Positions 7,053 to 61,540 of a stretch of 64,000 bases of DNA are shown piece by piece. Both the position numbers and the translations under genes were made by a program. Numbering within the stretch: position 1 is the first letter of the stretch; every line of letters begins with the position of its first letter. The notes below the pieces were generated by a model. The model had not been told where the DNA came from, searched no databases, and saw only the letters and a program-made list of their open reading frames with translations. The stretch comes from Candidatus Poribacteria bacterium (GTDB lineage Bacteria > Poribacteria > WGA-4E > WGA-3G), in contig OZ240248.1 of assembly GCA_965198235.1 (NCBI GenBank), forward strand, positions 3,072,001-3,136,000. The letters run 5' to 3'.

Positions 7053-7721
7053 ATGAATACAAAGAACTTAGTTGCCGAATTTGTCGGCACTTTCGCACTA
7101 ATCTTTATCGGTGCTGGTGCCTTGGCGATAGGTGCAGGCGGTTTAGTAGGGATCGCACTCGCTCACGGTTTAGTCATTGTGACGTTCGCTTATGCATATG
7201 GACACATCTCTGGCACGCATATCAATCCAGCTGTGACGCTTGGCTTGCTGATAGCAGGCGAGATCGAATTCGTGGCAGCTATCGGCTATTGGATTGTGCA
7301 ATTTCTTGGCGGAATTTTGGGGGCAGTTGTGCTTAACGCCGTGCTACCGAATCCCGGCGATCTGGGTGTGACGATTCTAACCACGGCGGCTAATGGTGGG
7401 GCCTTCACGGTTACTGCAACGCAAGGGCTTATCGTCGAAATGATACTCACCTTCTTCCTCGTCAATACCATTTTTAATACCGCTGTGAGTGGGAAAGCAG
7501 GAAACTTCGCAGGACTCGCGATTGGTCTCACATTGATGTTTGGTATCCTCATGGGGGGTCCGTTGACGCGTGCTTCGCTCAATCCTGCGCGGACGTTGGG
7601 ACCTGCCATTGTCAGCGGTAACTATGCGGACATCTGGCTCTATTTTGTGGGACCGTTTGTAGGTGCAATCCTCGCCGCGCTTCTCTATATCGGTGTCTTG
7701 AAAGATAAAGGAGAGGCGTAG
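7053..7721 (+). CDS. MIP-family channel (aquaporin)
   Basis: AEFVGTF, HINPAV and SLNPAR (two NPA motifs); GGAGG RBS. Confidence 0.95.
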   Translation: MNTKNLVAEFVGTFALIFIGAGALAIGAGGLVGIALAHGLVIVTFAYAYGHISGTHINPAVTLGLLIAGEIEFVAAIGYWIVQFLGGILGAVVLNAVLPNPGDLGVTILTTAANGGAFTVTATQGLIVEMILTFFLVNTIFNTAVSGKAGNFAGLAIGLTLMFGILMGGPLTRASLNPARTLGPAIVSGNYADIWLYFVGPFVGAILAALLYIGVLKDKGEA

Positions 7722-7797
7722 CACACGTATCACAGACAAAAAGAGAAGGCTGACACATTCACGCGCCAACCTTCTCTTTTGTGCTATGGTAAACGTA

Positions 7798-8229
7798 TTA
7801 GGATACAGTTGTGATCGGGATCTCGGTCGGTTTTACGACTTCCGGCTTCGGAATGGAGAGCATCAACACACCGTCGTTAAATTCGGCTTTGATATTGTCT
7901 GTCTCCACTTCCTCTGGGAGCGCGAATCTCCGTTGGAAACTGCCGTACCGCCGTTCAACTCTGCGATAGTTTTGCGTATCGTCCACCTTTTCCTGCCGTT
8001 TCTCCCCGCTGAGCGTCAAGAGGTTATCTTTGACAGAGACATGGAGGTCGTCCTTGGCGACCCCGGGTAGCTCAGCGCGGACTTCAAAGCCATCGTCTGT
8101 TTCCGAAATATCAACCGAGGGTACCCAATTGTATCTATCCGCATCGCTCCTTGTGTGTTGAGGCGCGAAAAACGGACTGTAGAATCTGAATAGATTTCCT
8201 GTTGGTCTGTGTAAGGTCAAATAAGTCAT
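7798..8229 (-). CDS. Hsp20/alpha-crystallin small heat-shock protein
   Basis: PSVDISET...AELPGV...ERRYGSFQRRF...FNDGVLMLSIPK; AGGAG RBS before ATG 8229. Confidence 0.93.
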   Translation of the reverse strand: MTYLTLHRPTGNLFRFYSPFFAPQHTRSDADRYNWVPSVDISETDDGFEVRAELPGVAKDDLHVSVKDNLLTLSGEKRQEKVDDTQNYRRVERRYGSFQRRFALPEEVETDNIKAEFNDGVLMLSIPKPEVVKPTEIPITTVS

Positions 8230-53653: not shown

Positions 53654-54873
53654 ATTTTATTTCACGGTCAGCCTTGTTAAGTTGATAATGTGGGTTCGGA
53701 AAAATCGTGTTTTCCATTATATGCTCTCTGCGTCTCAAGTGCAAGACTTTTTGTAGTAGAGAAACACGACGCATACAGTAGGTACGGTTTCCCAACTGGG
53801 ATTCTACCTGTTCTTAGAAGGCGCACTGAAGTCTTTCCGAACACGTGCTGCTGCCTAATGGTTGATTACCGACTGCTGATTGCTGACGGCTGACCGCTAA
53901 TTCGCGATAGGTGCGGTTTCCCAACCGCACCGGGTAACAACGAACCCATTGCATTTCCATCATTTCGCTGGCGAGGTTTCTAACCTCGCCTCTTGAGAGT
54001 GCCCAAGTAATTCTTAAATCTACTATAAATTAAGTCTAACAAACCTATGGGAATCCTATATCAGATGCCAAACCCCTAAAATCCGCGTCATCTGTGTAAT
54101 CCGTGTAATCTGCGATTCAGACAAGAAGGTTCTCTCATCCTGTAAAGATCGAAGAAGCCCGTGAATCCCAGTTCAGACAATTAACACCGCACATTACCCA
54201 ATTATACTAAGCTTTGGACAATTTTCAGCATTTGTATTACAGATGCGTTGTATCCTTTCAGGACACATGGCACTCCGCTGGAGTGCGAGAGGGTGGATAT
54301 ACCGTTTTCTATAGACATAGCAAGCCGAAGAAAGTGCGGTATTTTTCTCAGAGTTCCGTGAGTGTCTGGAACACGCGAAAAAATATACACGCCTTTGAAA
54401 ACTCAATTCATATGCAACACGAATTGTCCAAACTTTAGCAATTATAGTAAAACCCACAATTATTTTCACATTGCAGAGAGGCGGGGTTTGCAACCCCGCT
54501 CCACAATCTGTAGATTTTGCAATAAATAAAAAATAAATTTGCATCCTTATATTATATTATAGTATTATATATAATGTAATTCTAAATTAAGTATATAGGT
54601 CGGATTGAACACCATGAAATCCAACTGACGAACTATCCTGCTAACGGAAACCTATTACTGATGACTGATTGCTGACAGCCGATGGCTAATATTCTGATTG
54701 CTGACTGCTGATGGCTATCTCAATAAAATGTTACACTTTCCGCCAAATTATTTTTTTCCGTAGCAGAGGATCGCAGAAAAATGCCTCTGAGCCCTTACAG
54801 TTACTGGCTTCTCTGCCGATAACCGTTGTACACCAAATATTACACTGGTGTAACATTTTTAAGGAGAATTTTC

Positions 54874-55605
54874 ATGAAACTCGAAGAAAAACACAAAGAA
54901 TTCGTCGTCAAATGCTTCGCACGTTTTATGACATTAACCGATATCGTCAACGCATTCCTTGAGGAATTTGAAGACGATCTGCCCCCACCCGATATGTCAG
55001 AGGTCGTCACCCTCGAGGCATTAATGGCGGAGCCCTTCAGCGATGAAGATATCGAAGAAAAATCTGAATTCGTCGACGAATACATCGAGGAATTTATAGA
55101 GGAGCTTAAAGAAGAATATGGGAACGAAGCCGAGGAAAAGCTCAATCAAGAAGCACGCGAAGCGTTTGATTCTTTACGCGAAACACAATACCGTAAGGCG
55201 GCTAAGGAGTCCCTAGAAGACGCACTCGCAGGGCACGAAGATTGGCTCCAAAAAAATCTATTCAATCGCTTCCGACGCTTCGATATCGACCACCGTCAGT
55301 TCCCCGATAAATACAAGGCACTCTTTAACGAAACCCGCAATGAGTTCTGCGCCAATTACCGTATCCCCGACCTCAACGTTCCCGAAAACGTCGTCCGAGA
55401 ATTAGAGACCCTTTACGGACACGAGAAACAACTCATCTTTCAACACACGGGTTCAAGAGATGTTATGAAACATGTAACTTTGGCGCATCAAATCCTCAAG
55501 ACCATTATCACTTGCAATGCCATCAATTCACAACAAGAAGTCGTGGATGTTACACCCCAAGACGTAAAAGTCTTGAAGGAGACCCAAAAGGCTTTAACCG
55601 AATAG
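54874..55605 (+). CDS. DUF2280-like protein with an acidic insertion
   Basis: N-terminus LEEKHKEFVVKCFARF...EEF and later KYKALFNETRNEF...IP resemble DUF2280 as I recall it; AAGGAG RBS. Confidence 0.6.
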   Translation: MKLEEKHKEFVVKCFARFMTLTDIVNAFLEEFEDDLPPPDMSEVVTLEALMAEPFSDEDIEEKSEFVDEYIEEFIEELKEEYGNEAEEKLNQEAREAFDSLRETQYRKAAKESLEDALAGHEDWLQKNLFNRFRRFDIDHRQFPDKYKALFNETRNEFCANYRIPDLNVPENVVRELETLYGHEKQLIFQHTGSRDVMKHVTLAHQILKTIITCNAINSQQEVVDVTPQDVKVLKETQKALTE

Positions 55606-55666
55606 TGCCCCGCAGGAGAGACCTCCGATCAATAATCGAATGCCGCTGACGGTGCGGACAAACCGC

Positions 55667-55695
55667 TTGACAATGAAATATCTACATGGTATCCT
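55667..55695 (+). promoter_or_regulatory. sigma70-type promoter
   Basis: TTGACA-N17-TATCCT with extended TG. Confidence 0.6.
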
Positions 55696-55748
55696 TATTT
55701 AAACCGTTATGTATAAGAATATTGGTGCTACGGCTTGAGGAAAGAGAA

Positions 55749-57359
55749 ATGAGACGCTTTGGAACGCAGGGTCCCGTTCATCCACAGAGAAACTATGTCG
55801 TCAGTCGCGCTGCCGAACTCGCAGATTTCATCACGCGCGTCAAAGAGGGGCGTTACATTGTTATCTTCGCGCCGCGGCAGACCGGCAAAACGACCTTCTT
55901 TCAACGTGCCTTAGACGTATTTGCATACGAAGAGTCGGCTTACTTCCCGATTCCGTTGAATTTTGAGGTATATGAGGACTGCACGCCGTCGGTTTTTTAT
56001 AGCAGTCTTCACGAAGATATTTGCGAGGAGATAGAAAATGTTTTTGAGCGACGCGGAGAAGTCTTTTCTGAAGCATTGGCGGAATTTTTGGAGAACGCAG
56101 AAATAACCGATCATCTCTCGATGGGAAGATTCTTTAGACGTTTTTCCAGTTTTCTTGGTGACCAACGCGTTATCCTCATCATAGACGAGTTTGATGGCAT
56201 CCCGAAGGAGGCGGTGAGAGGCTTTCTGCATTCACTTCGCCGTATCTACGTCTCAAATGCTGTTTCTCGATGTCCGCATAGTGTCGGTATCGTTGGTGTC
56301 AAAAGTATTACGCAGCTGAACTACGACAGATCCATCTCTCCGTTCAATATCCAAGATGAATTCAACCTGCCGAACTTCACGCTTGAACAGGTGCAGGAAC
56401 TCCTTGGGCAATATACGGAAGAAGTTGATCAGGCGTTTGCCCCAGAGGTTATTGAATCTATTCATAAGCAGACTGCTGGACAACCTGTTCTCGTCAACCG
56501 ATTCGCGCAGATTCTCACCGAGGAGTTGGATATTCCCAAAACTGAACCGATGGCGATGCCACATTTTACAACGGCACATGCACAACTCCTTGAGGAAAAC
56601 AATGTCAACATCACACATTTGATAACCAACATCCGCAAAAACCCACGTTTTGAAAGTATGCTGATGCGCATCATGGAACGTGACGAAGGCGTGGACTTCA
56701 ATCCGGATAATCACATTATCAGTGAACTCGCCACTTATGGGGTCATCGCAAGAGGTAATGACGGTGCCTGTGAGATTCTCAATCCAATTTATCTCTATCG
56801 TATTATGAGGGCATTCAAGCCACTCGTAAACGGGTTAGAGCAAGAATACTTCCCGGAAGATACCAGCGACGCACTTCGTGATTATCTCACATCTACGGGG
56901 CAGATTGAAATGGAGGCGTTACTTGATAACTTCCAAGATTTCATAGCACGTGCAGGTTTCAGGATTTTGCAGGTCCCAGATACGCCGCAAGAATCGGTAG
57001 GACGGCACCTCTTGCTTGCCTATCTTGACGAGTTTGTTAGGCGTATCGGTGGTGTTATGCACATAGAGGTGAAAACCGGACGTGGTAGGATGGACATCCT
57101 TATTACTCACAATCAGCAAAAATACATTGTTGAGACAAAGATTTGGAGAGGCAATAGTCGCTATCAAGCAGGAAAGAAGCAATTAGCGGCATACCTCAAG
57201 TTGGAAGGCGCAACGCAAGGGTGCTATATAGTCTTTGATCATCGCCAAGATCCTGGGCAGCGTGTGGAGACCGAGACGATTGACGATGTAACAGTTCGGA
57301 GTTATGTGATTCCTGTTGTGCAGGAGCGACCTTCAGATGAACGCCTCCGTGATGCTTGA
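55749..57359 (+). CDS. AAA-like ATPase fused to a C-terminal PD-(D/E)xK nuclease-like domain
   Basis: APRQTGKTT, ILIIDEFD, SPFNI, TAGQP; GRMDILI...IVETK. Confidence 0.88.
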   Translation: MRRFGTQGPVHPQRNYVVSRAAELADFITRVKEGRYIVIFAPRQTGKTTFFQRALDVFAYEESAYFPIPLNFEVYEDCTPSVFYSSLHEDICEEIENVFERRGEVFSEALAEFLENAEITDHLSMGRFFRRFSSFLGDQRVILIIDEFDGIPKEAVRGFLHSLRRIYVSNAVSRCPHSVGIVGVKSITQLNYDRSISPFNIQDEFNLPNFTLEQVQELLGQYTEEVDQAFAPEVIESIHKQTAGQPVLVNRFAQILTEELDIPKTEPMAMPHFTTAHAQLLEENNVNITHLITNIRKNPRFESMLMRIMERDEGVDFNPDNHIISELATYGVIARGNDGACEILNPIYLYRIMRAFKPLVNGLEQEYFPEDTSDALRDYLTSTGQIEMEALLDNFQDFIARAGFRILQVPDTPQESVGRHLLLAYLDEFVRRIGGVMHIEVKTGRGRMDILITHNQQKYIVETKIWRGNSRYQAGKKQLAAYLKLEGATQGCYIVFDHRQDPGQRVETETIDDVTVRSYVIPVVQERPSDERLRDA

Positions 57360-57376
57360 CATTCGAGGAGGATGAA

Positions 57377-58138
57377 ATGCCTTATTGTACCGTGTGCAAG
57401 ATAGAGACTGATTATGAATACGATATAGCACTTTCCAACGGAGACTACCTTCATTATTCGTGTATAATCACGTTGCAAATGCGAAAACATGAGATTGAAA
57501 CTGTACTGCAGAGACAGATGCCACAACTCATTTTGTCGCTCTTTGTGCCAACTGAGGTTGTAGAACAAGACGTGGCCTCAGAGGCTGAGATTGAAGATTT
57601 ACGTGCTAAACTCGCGAAGTTAAAATCCGTTTTAACCGCAATCTATGACCATCTGCCGTGTTGGCCCCCGGATTGGGATGAACGGAAACGGCGGGTTATC
57701 AGGGAAAACGGTTCGGTCTGTTCACGTTGTGGTGAGGAGCAGGATGTCTATTTAGTGCACGATATCCCAGTATTTGAAGGTGGGACCAACGAGTTGGAGA
57801 ATCTCGTGCTGAGCTGCGCCGCATGTCATACGAGTATGTACAAGGAAGGCGATATTTTTGCCACCTTTACGCTAAATCCGTCACAGTCAGAATTCTCGGA
57901 ACAAGTCTCGGAAATCCAATCCGCGATTGACAATGATCAGAAGATTCAGTTTAACTATAAAAAGCCGAGTGCCAAAAGATGGATGACACGCGTCGTCGTG
58001 CCGGAGCGGTTTCTGAATATTCCAAACAACCGAGAGTCCGGTGAGACATTGTGTGTGGAAGGATTTTGCGAGTTACGACAGGATACCCGCGTCTTTGCAC
58101 TTGAGCGGATGCAAGCGTTAGAAGTCATTGGGGATTAG
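57377..58138 (+). CDS. Zn-finger + HNH-like + WYL-domain protein
   Basis: CTVC...HYSC; PPDW...CSRCG...HDIP..EGGTNELENLVLSCAACH; IQFNY...RVVVP...GFCELRQDTRVFALERM. Confidence 0.85.
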   Translation: MPYCTVCKIETDYEYDIALSNGDYLHYSCIITLQMRKHEIETVLQRQMPQLILSLFVPTEVVEQDVASEAEIEDLRAKLAKLKSVLTAIYDHLPCWPPDWDERKRRVIRENGSVCSRCGEEQDVYLVHDIPVFEGGTNELENLVLSCAACHTSMYKEGDIFATFTLNPSQSEFSEQVSEIQSAIDNDQKIQFNYKKPSAKRWMTRVVVPERFLNIPNNRESGETLCVEGFCELRQDTRVFALERMQALEVIGD

Positions 58139-58216
58139 CGAGAATAGGCAATGAGGTTGAGGCACCTATTCTAATTGAATCTTGTCCGAGCGAACATTCA
58201 CTAAGAAGAAGCAGCC

Positions 58217-59410
58217 ATGCGAGATATAGATATAAGAGCACTCTACTACATTACACATATAGACAACTTACCTTCTATCTTTGAGCGGGGCATCCTTTCC
58301 CGCGAAAGAATTGAAACAGAGGGCAGACAATTTGTTTCAATGTTTAAGGGGAGAACAGATGGTAAAAATAACATCAATAAAAGGAGCAAGATTAAACCCC
58401 GAGATGGTGGAAAAAGCCTCTTGAGTTACGCGAATTTATTGTTTCAACCACGTAACCCGATGATGTATCGTGCTATCTTTGAAACAGGTAAGGACAAACT
58501 TACCGTTCTTGAAGTAGCAGATACAGTCCTCAGTGAACAAGGAATTATCATCACAGACGGTAACGCGACCGATGAATTAACACAATTCTATCCGGGAATT
58601 CAAGGTCTGAAAAAACTTCAACAACAAGGGAAAATAATTCAGAGTGAGTGGTGGAAGAAGTGCGATGGATCAAAGCGCAAAATCATGGCGGAATGTTTAG
58701 TCCCTGACCATGTCAAGCCTGAATACATTCGTTCGGTTGTTATCGCTGACGATACACAGAGAAATTGGGTGCAGGGAACATTTAGTAATCCTAAATTTCC
58801 TATTATTTGTCAACCCGATATGTTTTTCCAACCTAAGCGTCGGATTGCAATCGGTAAAAATATTTCTCTTATTGACGGCGGTGATATGTTTTTCTCTGAG
58901 TTACAGACATTAACAGTTACAGTTAACCTTCAAGGAGTCATGGGCAAAGGATTGGCACTACGCACAAGAGAGCAATTTCCTGATGTCTATGTAGAATATG
59001 AGAAAGCATGTCGCTCAAAGAAAATCACAACTGAACGTCCTTATATCTATAAACGCGAGGAATCAGTTGCAGATGAGTTGTCAGATTTTAAACCACACCG
59101 TGTAAACATAAAAAATCCGATGAAGTGGTTTTTGCTTTTTGCGACAAAACGGCACTGGCGACAAAACTCACGTATAGAGGACATTGAAAGCGGTTTGAAA
59201 TGGTTACAGAACAACTATAAAGAAGAAGGTATCCAATCGCTAGCGATGTCTGCACTAGGCTGCGCATTGGGGGGTTTAAACTGGACAGATGTCGCTCCAT
59301 TGATGTGTAAGTACCTTGATGAAATAGGTATCCCTGTTGAAATCTATCTCCCCCGTGAATACTCAATTGAACCTCAACATTTAGTAGAATCACATCTCCT
59401 AACACGCTGA
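58217..59410 (+). CDS. DarT (DUF4433) DNA ADP-ribosyltransferase fused to a DarG-like macrodomain
   Basis: YYITHIDNL..I...GILS, PRNPMMY, TDGNA, MAECLVP; then GDMF...TVN..GVMGKGLA...FP...FATKRHWR...LGC..GGLNW. Confidence 0.9.
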   Translation: MRDIDIRALYYITHIDNLPSIFERGILSRERIETEGRQFVSMFKGRTDGKNNINKRSKIKPRDGGKSLLSYANLLFQPRNPMMYRAIFETGKDKLTVLEVADTVLSEQGIIITDGNATDELTQFYPGIQGLKKLQQQGKIIQSEWWKKCDGSKRKIMAECLVPDHVKPEYIRSVVIADDTQRNWVQGTFSNPKFPIICQPDMFFQPKRRIAIGKNISLIDGGDMFFSELQTLTVTVNLQGVMGKGLALRTREQFPDVYVEYEKACRSKKITTERPYIYKREESVADELSDFKPHRVNIKNPMKWFLLFATKRHWRQNSRIEDIESGLKWLQNNYKEEGIQSLAMSALGCALGGLNWTDVAPLMCKYLDEIGIPVEIYLPREYSIEPQHLVESHLLTR

Positions 59411-59413
59411 CAA

Positions 59414-61540
59414 TTATTTACATCGCACATAACTTTCACGAGGCGCGTCCAGATCGACAAGGACGTTCTGACCCACCTGTAGAAACCGACCGTTCAGCAT
59501 CACGAATTGAACGGCTGAACCGGAGGTATCCCTCCGCAAAAAGAGATATTCACCAACAAACCTAATGTCTGCAGCAGACATCTCCGCCAAGCCATCGTCA
59601 GAGATGAGGAATGTGTCTGTCGTGCTATGTAACTGAAGCGTGAAACCTGTCCCCAAGACATCAGGATCCGTACGCACCTCAATATCGGAAAGCGTCGGAT
59701 GGATTTTAACTTCAGGTTTCATAGGAAATAACAACGTGTTCATTACCACTGGCGATTCCCGATGCCTCTGATAAGTAACGCTGTCCGTATCCAACGTTAC
59801 CGAGAGGTCAGTCGTCCCCACCGCACCGATGAACAGATTGCTACGACGTGGGTCCTGTGTCCGTAGGTCCCCCGCGTCGGAATTGATGTGAGGGGCTACC
59901 TTTTGATTGAGACGAAAAATCTGTTCCAATGTCTGTGCGCCGTCGCCGAGGACGAGGTCATGCAAGATGAAGTATTCGCCTTTGAGGTAGAAGATGGCGC
60001 GTTTGTGGTGAACGGTTGTCGTGTGATGCCACTTTTCGACCCAATCAAATGTGGGTGTCGTTATCCATTGCGTGTCAATCCTATCGGATGCGGATAGCGG
60101 CGTATCAAGCACGCGAACGGCACCTGTTGTCAGTTGTCGTCCGTGTGCATGTAACACAAGGGTTGAGGTGTCCGCGTGGTTCGGTTTTCCCGATGGGTGC
60201 GCATCGAAAAATAGGTATTGTGCGTCCGGTTCCCAACTATCCCGCATGACATAGCAGCCGGTCTCAGGAAGCGCGTGCGAGGTGGTATCAGGAGACGGAA
60301 AATCCTCACGCCGAACGCTACTATCGACAATCGTGCAGAGTTCATCGGCATCAAAGTTGGGAGTAGGGAGAGGACCAAGAGGCGGAAACGAGCCGTCGGG
60401 TTGACGCAGATGGATACAGGTTTCCACCTGTTTTTCCAGTGATGTTTGTATTTCTTCGACGGAGTCGGCACGCTCCGTGGGGTCTCCGTAAACGGATAGG
60501 AATCTGACAAAATCAGCAATTGCCGCAACGTGAGAGCGCAGTGTCCGATCCTTGTGAAAGCCATCTGAATGAAAGAAGGCATCGACTATCCATTTATAGC
60601 GACGGCGCGCGAGCATACGAAGTTGCGCACTCCCACGGAATTCGGGGAGGCGGTGCGCCGCGATACCCATCTCTGTCGTTGCTGTGATAGCCGGGGTCGG
60701 ATGAATAGACAAGCGAAGTAGGCATTCAAGATAGGTTTTCGCAGTGGTATAGGTATCGGATATTTCTGTTAGCGGGATTGATTCATGTTCAACCTGTAAA
60801 TTTAAGAATTCTCTCCGAAAGTCCGTATATGCGGATTTTGCGGCGGGCATATCTCCTGCTAAAACGGCAGTTTTCACGACTTCCATTCCCGGATAATCCA
60901 GATGGAGTGCATCAAAAAAGTCGTTATCGCTGAAGGGCAAATTGTATTGATTCTGGGGCGTTAGGTTGCGTTTGAGAACGGTGTTATAGGCAGTAACCGC
61001 AGATACCAAAATCGGGAGGTTTCGTTCATTCGCAAGTGAGAAAGCGACATCGATCGGCAGGGTGAGATGAGAATCTGTCGGTGCGGGAGCAACCTCTGCC
61101 AGCACCGCCGAGATCCTTCCGAATCCAGCGAGCCGCCAGAGCTCTGATTGTGGAAGTGATGCACAGACACTGCCTGCCAATGCCAGTGCACTTCCTGCTT
61201 CGAGTCTTGGGCGAGGTTCACCATCTGGATAGGCGTAGAGATACTCAGCGTACTCTAACAGGATACGGGCAAGTTCGCGGTACCCCAACTCAGTAAGCGG
61301 TTCATGTGCCGCGATCGCGACCGCCTCAATGACGCGCGCTGCAACCGATTCCAATCGCCATGGGGGATATTGTGGTGTGAATTCGATCGGTGTCCGTTGT
61401 GCTTCGGCGAACGTGAGGAGTTCCTCAAAATCCGCTATCGGCTCAAGTTGCCCGATTGCAAGGAGTTCCCGCTTCGCAAGGGTTTCTGCGAGGCGTTGGA
61501 TATGCTCAGTTTGGAGAGTTGTCCATTTTTCCAACGACAT
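59414..61540 (-). CDS. heparinase II/III-like protein (divergent)
   Basis: DGFH, QPDGSFP, PETGCYVMRDSW, NHADT, HKRAIFYLKGEYFILHD. Confidence 0.7.
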   Translation of the reverse strand: MSLEKWTTLQTEHIQRLAETLAKRELLAIGQLEPIADFEELLTFAEAQRTPIEFTPQYPPWRLESVAARVIEAVAIAAHEPLTELGYRELARILLEYAEYLYAYPDGEPRPRLEAGSALALAGSVCASLPQSELWRLAGFGRISAVLAEVAPAPTDSHLTLPIDVAFSLANERNLPILVSAVTAYNTVLKRNLTPQNQYNLPFSDNDFFDALHLDYPGMEVVKTAVLAGDMPAAKSAYTDFRREFLNLQVEHESIPLTEISDTYTTAKTYLECLLRLSIHPTPAITATTEMGIAAHRLPEFRGSAQLRMLARRRYKWIVDAFFHSDGFHKDRTLRSHVAAIADFVRFLSVYGDPTERADSVEEIQTSLEKQVETCIHLRQPDGSFPPLGPLPTPNFDADELCTIVDSSVRREDFPSPDTTSHALPETGCYVMRDSWEPDAQYLFFDAHPSGKPNHADTSTLVLHAHGRQLTTGAVRVLDTPLSASDRIDTQWITTPTFDWVEKWHHTTTVHHKRAIFYLKGEYFILHDLVLGDGAQTLEQIFRLNQKVAPHINSDAGDLRTQDPRRSNLFIGAVGTTDLSVTLDTDSVTYQRHRESPVVMNTLLFPMKPEVKIHPTLSDIEVRTDPDVLGTGFTLQLHSTTDTFLISDDGLAEMSAADIRFVGEYLFLRRDTSGSAVQFVMLNGRFLQVGQNVLVDLDAPRESYVRCK

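Follow-up and report, generated by a model that had tools for sequence, protein, structure and literature searches.

How can a toxin that modifies DNA be kept under control when its antidote is welded to it in a fixed 1:1 ratio? The question is raised by a gene of Candidatus Poribacteria bacterium that lies in a 64,000-nucleotide (nt) stretch of contig OZ240248.1 (assembly GCA_965198235.1, positions 3,072,001 to 3,136,000 of the forward strand; hereafter the window, whose own numbering is used below unless a locus is named) and that joins a DarT ADP-ribosyltransferase (ART), the writer of a DNA modification, to a DarG/TARG1-type macrodomain, its eraser, in one chain. The protein is a chromosomal member of a natural single-chain DarTG family, the solved representative of which is Thermosipho africanus DarTG. 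As for its role, we propose with moderate confidence that it would work as a self-neutralising, toxin-antitoxin (TA)-like DNA ADP-ribosylation module, probably defensive, housed in a small and variable gene cluster of low guanine-cytosine (GC) content.

The fused protein, its solved homologue and its family

A preliminary description, made from the sequence alone, had reported a single 397-residue open reading frame (ORF) combining a DarT domain and a macrodomain, and this was borne out by our analysis. All five motifs that it quoted were located in the protein, with ITH at residues 12–14, PRNPMMY at 78–84, AECLV at 158–162, GVMGKG at 240–245, and FATK at 308–311, and the ART glutamate and macrodomain lysine that it listed as retained correspond to E159 and K311, respectively (Table 1). 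Profile searches, suggested there as a check, gave matches well above chance: the Pfam DarT model (PF14487) aligned over its whole length to residues 10–204 (profile positions 1–201 of 201, E = 1e-34, 120.5 bits with a cut-off of 22.5), and the Macro model (PF01661) matched the C-terminal half (1.5e-7), with an additional match to the DarT model of PADLOC (8.6e-32). The PADLOC model of DarG aligned to residues 221–383 over its positions 6–149 of 329 (3.5e-45), and the NCBIfam DarG model (NF048014) only over positions 5–152 of 338. Both DarG profiles were aligned over their N-terminal part only; the C-terminal DarT-binding domain of DarG is therefore absent, as had been suspected before, and the protein terminates 14 residues past the macrodomain. 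In a profile search of the genome, the sole other match to the C-terminal part of the DarG model was weak (1.8e-4, 21.8 bits) and located about 383 kb away, and no second DarT or macrodomain gene was found within the window locus.

The fused architecture is not a novelty, as the same fusion was already deposited in 2021 and belongs to a widespread family. The top match in the PDB was the 406-residue chain of 7omu, "Thermosipho africanus DarTG in complex with ADP-ribose" (released 2021-06-23), which aligned to residues 6–390 of the window protein (E = 2e-108) and matched the family profile at 8.4e-166. This entry shares its deposition series with the Thermus sp. 2.9 DarT structures 7omv to 7on0, a series that we take to be that of Schuller et al. 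(Nature 2021), and it reads MAACLVP where the window protein reads MAECLVP, being a catalytic Glu-to-Ala mutant. Both proteins are single chains of similar length (406 and 397 residues) with the same domain order and without the C-terminal domain of DarG, and they have in common the motifs YYITHIDN, FQPRNPM, DGNA, MA[E]CLVP, GVMGKG, and TKRHW. They differ in lineage, the relatives of the window protein being sponge-associated Candidatus Poribacteria, and at position 75, which is Leu in the window protein and Tyr in 7omu and in most family members.

Structure prediction, also proposed as a check, yielded a confident two-domain model. The AlphaFold2 (AF2) model, built on an alignment of 23 sequences, had a predicted local distance difference test (pLDDT) of 92.1 and a predicted template modelling score (pTM) of 0.88, with pLDDT values of 91–96 per 10-residue block in the region of the linker, which joins the two domains by about 15 residues, and the domains are packed as a single rigid body. 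Compared by Foldseek to 7omu, the model gave template modelling (TM) scores of 0.89/0.94 and a root-mean-square deviation (rmsd) of 2.4 over 395 columns, at 45% identity.

The integrity of the fusion was examined in public sequencing runs carrying this stretch, which are sponge metagenomes. Contigs of four independent runs over 57300–59500 showed no indel inside the ORF, the only one being at 59423, past the stop codon. A 2359-nt contig of run X1 (window ~56644–59002) was gapless over 57300–59002, with zero differences within the ORF, and bridged the domain junction; this read evidence refers to the covered parts of the runs, with ~59002–59203 of X1 and the uncovered parts of X14 left out. The preliminary description had named a stop between the domains as a finding that would speak against it; no such interruption was seen, the contigs being free of indels within the ORF and both domains standing in one stop-free frame in each of the 96 related loci that were fetched (16 from genomes and 80 from metagenomes). 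The explanation that faulty assembly, or else a frameshift of recent date, had joined two genes and left an artefact or a pseudogene was rejected, its probability being practically nil in view of the four runs without an indel and the contig across the junction, the 96 loci fused in frame, and the crystal structure of a fused homologue (7OMU).

Relatives of the fused protein were abundant in public data. A word-indexed search gave 2791 matches, and 114 of the 120 best clusters (58–97% identity, 301–421 residues) carried both Pfam domains. When 1.84 billion representatives were searched exhaustively, 6875 matched at E ≤ 1e-3 and 89 at ≤ 1e-30, at least 22 of the latter being full-length fused representatives (50% clustering) of 31–54% identity, and a metagenome scan confirmed at least 451 relatives among 598 candidate stretches. 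Within the phylum of the window, matches were present in 89 of 176 genomes and in 12 of 31 genera, and 38 of the 64 other genomes of its own genus were positive. Since both domains are found in all 96 fetched loci and in 114 of the 120 best clusters, the fused form is the family's stable state; one passage of a 2020 review still confines DarG to a two-component operon (PMC7050489). Residue conservation, counted over 247 distinct fused sequences, points in addition to selection on both catalytic centres, E159 being Glu in 237 of 241 ungapped sequences and K311 being Lys in 246 of 247, with the glycines G243 and G245 of the GVMGKG motif kept in 245 and 246 of 247, respectively.

DarT type and candidate target base

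The known DarT types differ in the base that they modify. According to passages of one study (PMC11543638), DarT2 ADP-ribosylates thymidine in single-stranded DNA (ssDNA), and the macrodomain of DarG reverses the reaction through K80. Of the DarT2 residues with a role described there, R51 abstracts a proton, Y71 stacks on the nicotinamide as part of the H-Y-E motif, and H119 contacts thymine, the fourth being E160. For DarT1, the same passages place N104 instead of H119, in contact with guanine, and describe DarG as unable to remove the guanine adduct.

The label of DarTG2 with a thymidine target, given to the window protein in the preliminary description, proved to be an extrapolation. Neither half reached the cut-off of its NCBIfam equivalog (85.5 bits against 150 for the DarT half in NF048013, and 145.3 bits against 250 for the macrodomain half in NF048014), and the His and Tyr of DarT2 at the H119 and Y71 positions are replaced by N116 and L75. 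In profile alignments to 7omv and 8baq, N116 pairs with both H119 of DarT2 and N104 of DarT1, within a shared NAA motif, and among the 247 fused sequences Asn accounts for 196 at this position, Asp for 28, and Ser for 13. The PRNPMMY motif is present as described, but its arginine is not the equivalent of R51, with which R56 aligns instead (the alignment of this loop being less certain).

The DarT half was placed by profile and Foldseek scores. The family profile matched Thermus DarT2 at 3e-21 and Escherichia coli C7 DarT1 at 3e-15, and the predicted fold of the DarT half was nearer to DarT2 (Thermus sp. 2.9 DarT, probability 1.00, TMt 0.76–0.81) than to DarT1 (E. coli C7, TMt 0.57, rmsd 5.3). 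For the eraser, the same profile matched the DarG macrodomains of Thermus aquaticus (5m31, 5e-40) and Mycobacterium tuberculosis (5m3i, 3e-38), as well as TARG1 (~1e-12). Judged from these alignments, the fused writer combines a DarT1-like base-contact residue with a DarT2-like fold and is tied to a DarG-type eraser; its target base is not to be taken for granted.

The likeness to characterised systems is partial in each case. With the two-gene DarTG2 systems of Thermus, M. tuberculosis, and enteropathogenic E. coli, the window protein shares the DarT fold, the DarG-type macrodomain with its catalytic Lys, and the order of writer and then eraser. It differs from them in being encoded by one gene instead of two, in the missing C-terminal domain of DarG, in falling below both equivalog cut-offs, in Asn for H119 and Tyr for the first His of HxTH, and in its fixed stoichiometry, by which the antitoxin cannot be titrated away; the separate toxin and antitoxin genes of a two-gene TA system of type II/IV are here a single ORF. 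With DarTG1, in which a guanine-specific DarT1 is paired with a NADAR eraser, it shares the fold of the DarT superfamily and the Asn at the base contact (N104 and N116, in the NAA motif), whereas its eraser is a macrodomain, its fold is more remote, and the fused proteins are devoid of the conserved Asp two residues after the candidate catalytic Arg. Human TARG1 (OARD1/C6orf130) belongs to the same macrodomain subclass (E ~1e-12; TMt 0.79–0.86), but is a stand-alone eukaryotic eraser, uncoupled from a writer; it is described as protecting against DNA ADP-ribosylation of the DarT type (PMC8501950).

A canonical DarTG1 is also encoded in the same genome, outside the window (G000:C1:4296177-4297583, corresponding to L018:1438-2844), with a DarT of 222 residues (Pfam 4.5e-17) followed by a DarT1-associated NADAR antitoxin (PF22397, 1.4e-84). 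The organism therefore has two different DNA ADP-ribosylation modules.

Three states of one chromosomal slot and its surroundings

A new finding of the present analysis is that the chromosomal slot of the fused gene occurs in three states, namely the fusion alone, as in the window, a free DarT gene followed by the fusion, and a macrodomain gene alone. Of the 16 related genome loci, 8 showed the second state and 2 could not be assessed; it was also detected in locus L019. A stand-alone DarT then lies directly upstream of the fusion (L001, positions 7230–7886, L002, L003, L005, L007, L009, L011, L013, and L019), and the scan of the phylum gave the pair in about 17 genomes. These free DarT proteins, of about 190–230 residues, are 40–49% identical to the DarT half of the window protein, and their genes are separated from the fusion by 72–124 nt in most such loci and by 4 nt in L013. 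The one in L001 keeps ITHID, FQPRNPM, and MAECLVP intact (Pfam 6e-38). No second DarT was detected near the fusion in any of the 79 more distant metagenome loci (L020 to L098), 50 of which extend upstream of it by more than 700 nt, and in the window, the 79 nt between the upstream HNH-WYL gene and the fusion hold no DarT remnant.

The third state was found in six genomes of the same genus (L099 to L104, e.g., L101:4998-5567, minus strand), in which the slot, between the HNH-WYL and heparinase-like genes, is filled by a macrodomain-only gene encoding about 195 residues, 60–65% identical to the C-terminal half of the window protein. The cassette here seems to be left with an orphan eraser. In addition, the fused copy of L003 (L003:8007-9191), a locus that also has a free DarT upstream, has the sequence KIMAGCLVP, in which Gly replaces the catalytic Glu; its writer half is probably inactivated. 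A turnover of the cassette in which the writer is lost and the eraser kept would be expected if the DarT half were costly or toxic and the macrodomain half protective.

Contigs of runs X2 and X4 diverge from the window sequence at 58241–58283, at the 5' end of the fused gene, which suggests co-occurring strains with another upstream cassette.

The surroundings of the fused gene are listed in Table 1. The last 4 nt of the ATPase gene are also the first 4 nt of the HNH-WYL gene, and both genes are to be taken as context and not as demonstrated functional partners. This arrangement of genes is syntenic in L001, L003, L004, and L013, and partly so in L002 and L008, the HNH-WYL gene being syntenic also in the macrodomain-only loci L099 to L103, and the fusion is found in at least four other contexts within Poribacteria without HNH-WYL or ATPase neighbours. 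Because the flanking genes show identities similar to that of the fusion itself in the syntenic relatives, synteny alone is no proof of a functional linkage. The AAA_35 and HNH-WYL pair is kept in synteny whether followed by the fusion, by DarT plus the fusion, or by the macrodomain only, and it may represent a separate two-gene defence candidate or a regulator, the PADLOC matches to candidate systems being weak.

Table 1. Features of the fused gene, its product, and the neighbouring genes (window positions)
Feature	Position	Strand	Basis or remark
Fused DarT-macrodomain gene (natural DarTG fusion)	58217..59410	+	Single ATG-started ORF, 397 residues
DarT ADP-ribosyltransferase domain, residues 10–204	58244..58828	+	Pfam PF14487, Foldseek
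Codon of N116, position of the target-base-contacting residue	58562..58564	+	Profile alignments to 7omv and 8baq
Codon of E159, ART catalytic glutamate (in AECLV)	58691..58693	+	Aligned with the mutated Ala of 7omu and 7omv
Inter-domain linker, residues 205–220	58829..58876	+	Between Pfam DarT end (204) and PADLOC DarG start (221)
DarG/TARG1-type macrodomain, residues 221–383	58877..59365	+	PADLOC DarG 3.5e-45
Codon of K311 (FATK), equivalent to the DarG catalytic Lys	59147..59149	+	Pairs with K of FPTKKHWR in 5m31 and 5m3i
DUF2280-like gene	54826–55605	+	Upstream of the ATPase gene
AAA_35 ATPase gene, weak PD-(D/E)XK-like C-terminus	55686..57359	+	Pfam AAA_35 6.8e-16; PDDEXK_9 0.0019, below cut-off
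HNH + WYL protein gene	57356..58138	+	Pfam WYL 1.3e-9, HNH 1.5e-6; ends 79 nt before the fusion
Heparinase II/III-like gene	Downstream of the fusion	Convergent	Pfam

The GC content of the fused gene is about 0.42, within a region (54000–59400) of 0.39–0.47, and that of the downstream gene is 0.51–0.52. The lowest value of the region (0.39) corresponds to 54000–55000, where no long ORF precedes the DUF2280-like gene, and the variable gene cluster may have its edge here. A scan for promoters and terminators gave 13 sites against 9.8 ± 2.7 in shuffled sequences, which is not above chance, with none in the 79-nt spacer. The contig of X1 described above comes from a metatranscriptome library and reaches, without a gap, from within the ATPase gene across the HNH-WYL gene into the fused gene, most of which it covers; it fits co-transcription, but an origin from an RNA library proves neither transcription nor a single transcript, as DNA carry-over is possible.

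No conserved neighbour was found among the 79 distant metagenome loci, the largest neighbour cluster comprising five of them. Methylase or Res genes of type III restriction-modification (R-M) systems adjoin the fusion in 7 of the 80 metagenome loci, and in two loci (L087:481-7894 and L097:1979-9256), it lies between the genes of an N6/N4 DNA methylase and a type III Res helicase and overlaps each of them by 4 nt; Res is located directly 3' of the fusion in L051 and L053. In four to five metagenome loci, the fusion sits inside a leuC-leuD-leuB operon, an arrangement between leuC-like and leuD/leuB/leuA-like genes being seen in L070:3-7394 (also L064, L068, L073, L091, and L095). In four loci of this leu type, a protein of 134–164 residues with the DNA-binding domain of O6-methylguanine-DNA-methyltransferase (MGMT; 1.8e-6) precedes it.

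A proposed self-neutralising module weighed against other roles

In the module that we favour, the DarT half would use NAD+ to ADP-ribosylate a base in ssDNA. The adduct would be removed again by the macrodomain half of the same protein, with Lys311 as its catalytic residue. The antidote would thus be carried in cis, and both a second gene and the C-terminal clamp of DarG would be dispensable. Since writer and eraser are fixed at 1:1, any switch to net DNA modification would have to be post-translational: the macrodomain might be inhibited or saturated, DarT might be released allosterically or sterically, or the ssDNA substrate might surge. The exclusion of control by antitoxin depletion, already argued in the preliminary description, follows logically from the same stoichiometry. 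Phage sensors of the CapRel(SJ46) type, in which toxin and neutralising domain also share one polypeptide and activation likewise has to be post-translational, offer a parallel, although folds and chemistry are unrelated and their antitoxin domain, a pseudo-enzyme, serves as a lid and as the sensor of a capsid protein, whereas that of the window protein is predicted to be an active hydrolase. The fused protein would act as a self-contained TA-like module, most probably directed against phages or mobile elements. Defence against phage is the role given to DarTG systems in PMC11543638.

Several features point in this direction. The fused gene most likely behaves like a mobile or defence module, given the absence of a conserved neighbour, the R-M genes beside it in some loci, its patchy distribution, its low GC content, and the DarT1-NADAR pair in the genome, and the macrodomain-only slot of six related genomes, with the Gly at the E159 position in L003, suggests a pattern of decay like that of a toxin.

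Other observations weigh against it. The syntenic slot, with flanking genes of similar identity, agrees no less with vertical inheritance than with a defence island. In the DarT half, L75 pairs with the NAD-stacking Y71 of DarT2, a position that is Y in 144 family members, F in 66, and L in 26; the position of R56 is R in 175 of 238 ungapped sequences, K in 31, and Q in 24; and the first His of the HxTH of DarT1 and DarT2 is Tyr in the window protein and in most fused proteins. The mean pairwise identity across the family is lower for this half (0.46) than for the macrodomain half (0.62). Among the 80 best viral-contig loci, none had the fused form, 28 showing a two-gene DarT plus long DarG and 52 a macrodomain only, and of 116 matching plasmid records, the 8 with a coverage of ≥80% show two annotated genes and none a fusion (the two-gene state was checked for matches H1 and H2). 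Finally, no text on a fused DarT-macrodomain was found in the main texts covered by a full-text literature search.

Some of these observations would be accommodated by a protein that is mainly an antidote or immunity protein in this clade, its attenuated DarT-like half serving to target the macrodomain to the same DNA sites or to a partner DarT, a role that we regard as unlikely, as we do its corollary that the true toxin is the stand-alone DarT paralogue and the window protein an orphan antitoxin left after the loss of that gene. The free DarT, with intact motifs in L001, that lies upstream in 8 of the 16 genome loci, in L019, and in about 17 genomes of the scanned phylum, the macrodomain-only gene that occupies the same slot in L099 to L104, the better conservation of the macrodomain half, Leu75 at the Y71 position, and the Glu-to-Gly change in a fused copy that stands beside a free DarT (L003) all agree with such a role. 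They have to be set against the retention of E159 by the window protein, as by 237 of 241 family members, the occurrence of L or F at position 75 both with and without a stand-alone DarT, the spacer of the window free of any DarT remnant, and the lack of a second DarT in all 79 distant loci, from which it follows that the fused DarT must act alone in most of the family.

A housekeeping function, in which a transient ADP-ribose mark on ssDNA would modulate replication, repair, or growth of the symbiont with no part in defence or addiction, receives little credence from us. It could explain the presence in 89 of the 176 genomes of the phylum, the syntenic site in one family, the position inside the leu operon in four to five metagenome loci beside the MGMT-type DNA-binding-domain protein, and the contig of the RNA library, which, however, is no proof of transcription, as such libraries may contain DNA; it sits badly with a patchy distribution, the genus itself included (38 of its 64 other genomes have a match), with a slot that alternates among three cassette states, with R-M neighbours in some loci and a conserved neighbour in none, and with the low GC content. 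Very little credence, likewise, goes to the idea that each cycle of writing and erasing in the fused protein would turn one NAD+ into ADP-ribose and nicotinamide, with DNA as a mere co-factor, and the same holds for its extension, by which abundant ssDNA (e.g., phage replication intermediates) would make the protein an NADase, by which the infected cell would be starved with no lasting damage to DNA. The support for this idea is logical only, in that both centres are intact and rigidly coupled and the clamp that would silence DarT is missing; the same architecture fits simple self-neutralisation, and characterised DarT enzymes are not known to turn over fast enough. The residue at the base contact leads to a broader proposal, which we hold to be distinctly improbable: because Asn is found there as in DarT1, yet paired with a DarG-type eraser, the fused clade could be a third type of DarT with its own target base or substrate, in which the coupling would serve an ssDNA-stimulated, NAD+-consuming cycle or a transient-mark writer and not a classical restrained toxin. 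Under the same proposal, the relatives in sponge symbionts would have recruited the free DarT paralogue to form a three-part system of a writer and a writer-eraser.

In conclusion, the architecture itself was already known, with a homologue crystallised in 2021 and hundreds of relatives in public data, and it will not surprise a specialist familiar with 7OMU. What this locus adds is a well-supported natural example from an uncultured sponge symbiont, together with evidence that sets the fused clade apart from DarT1 as well as from DarT2 at the residue in contact with the base, so that its substrate should not be assumed. Finally, the series of slots with the fusion alone, with a free DarT plus the fusion, and with the macrodomain alone could help to find out which half of the protein is toxic and which is protective.

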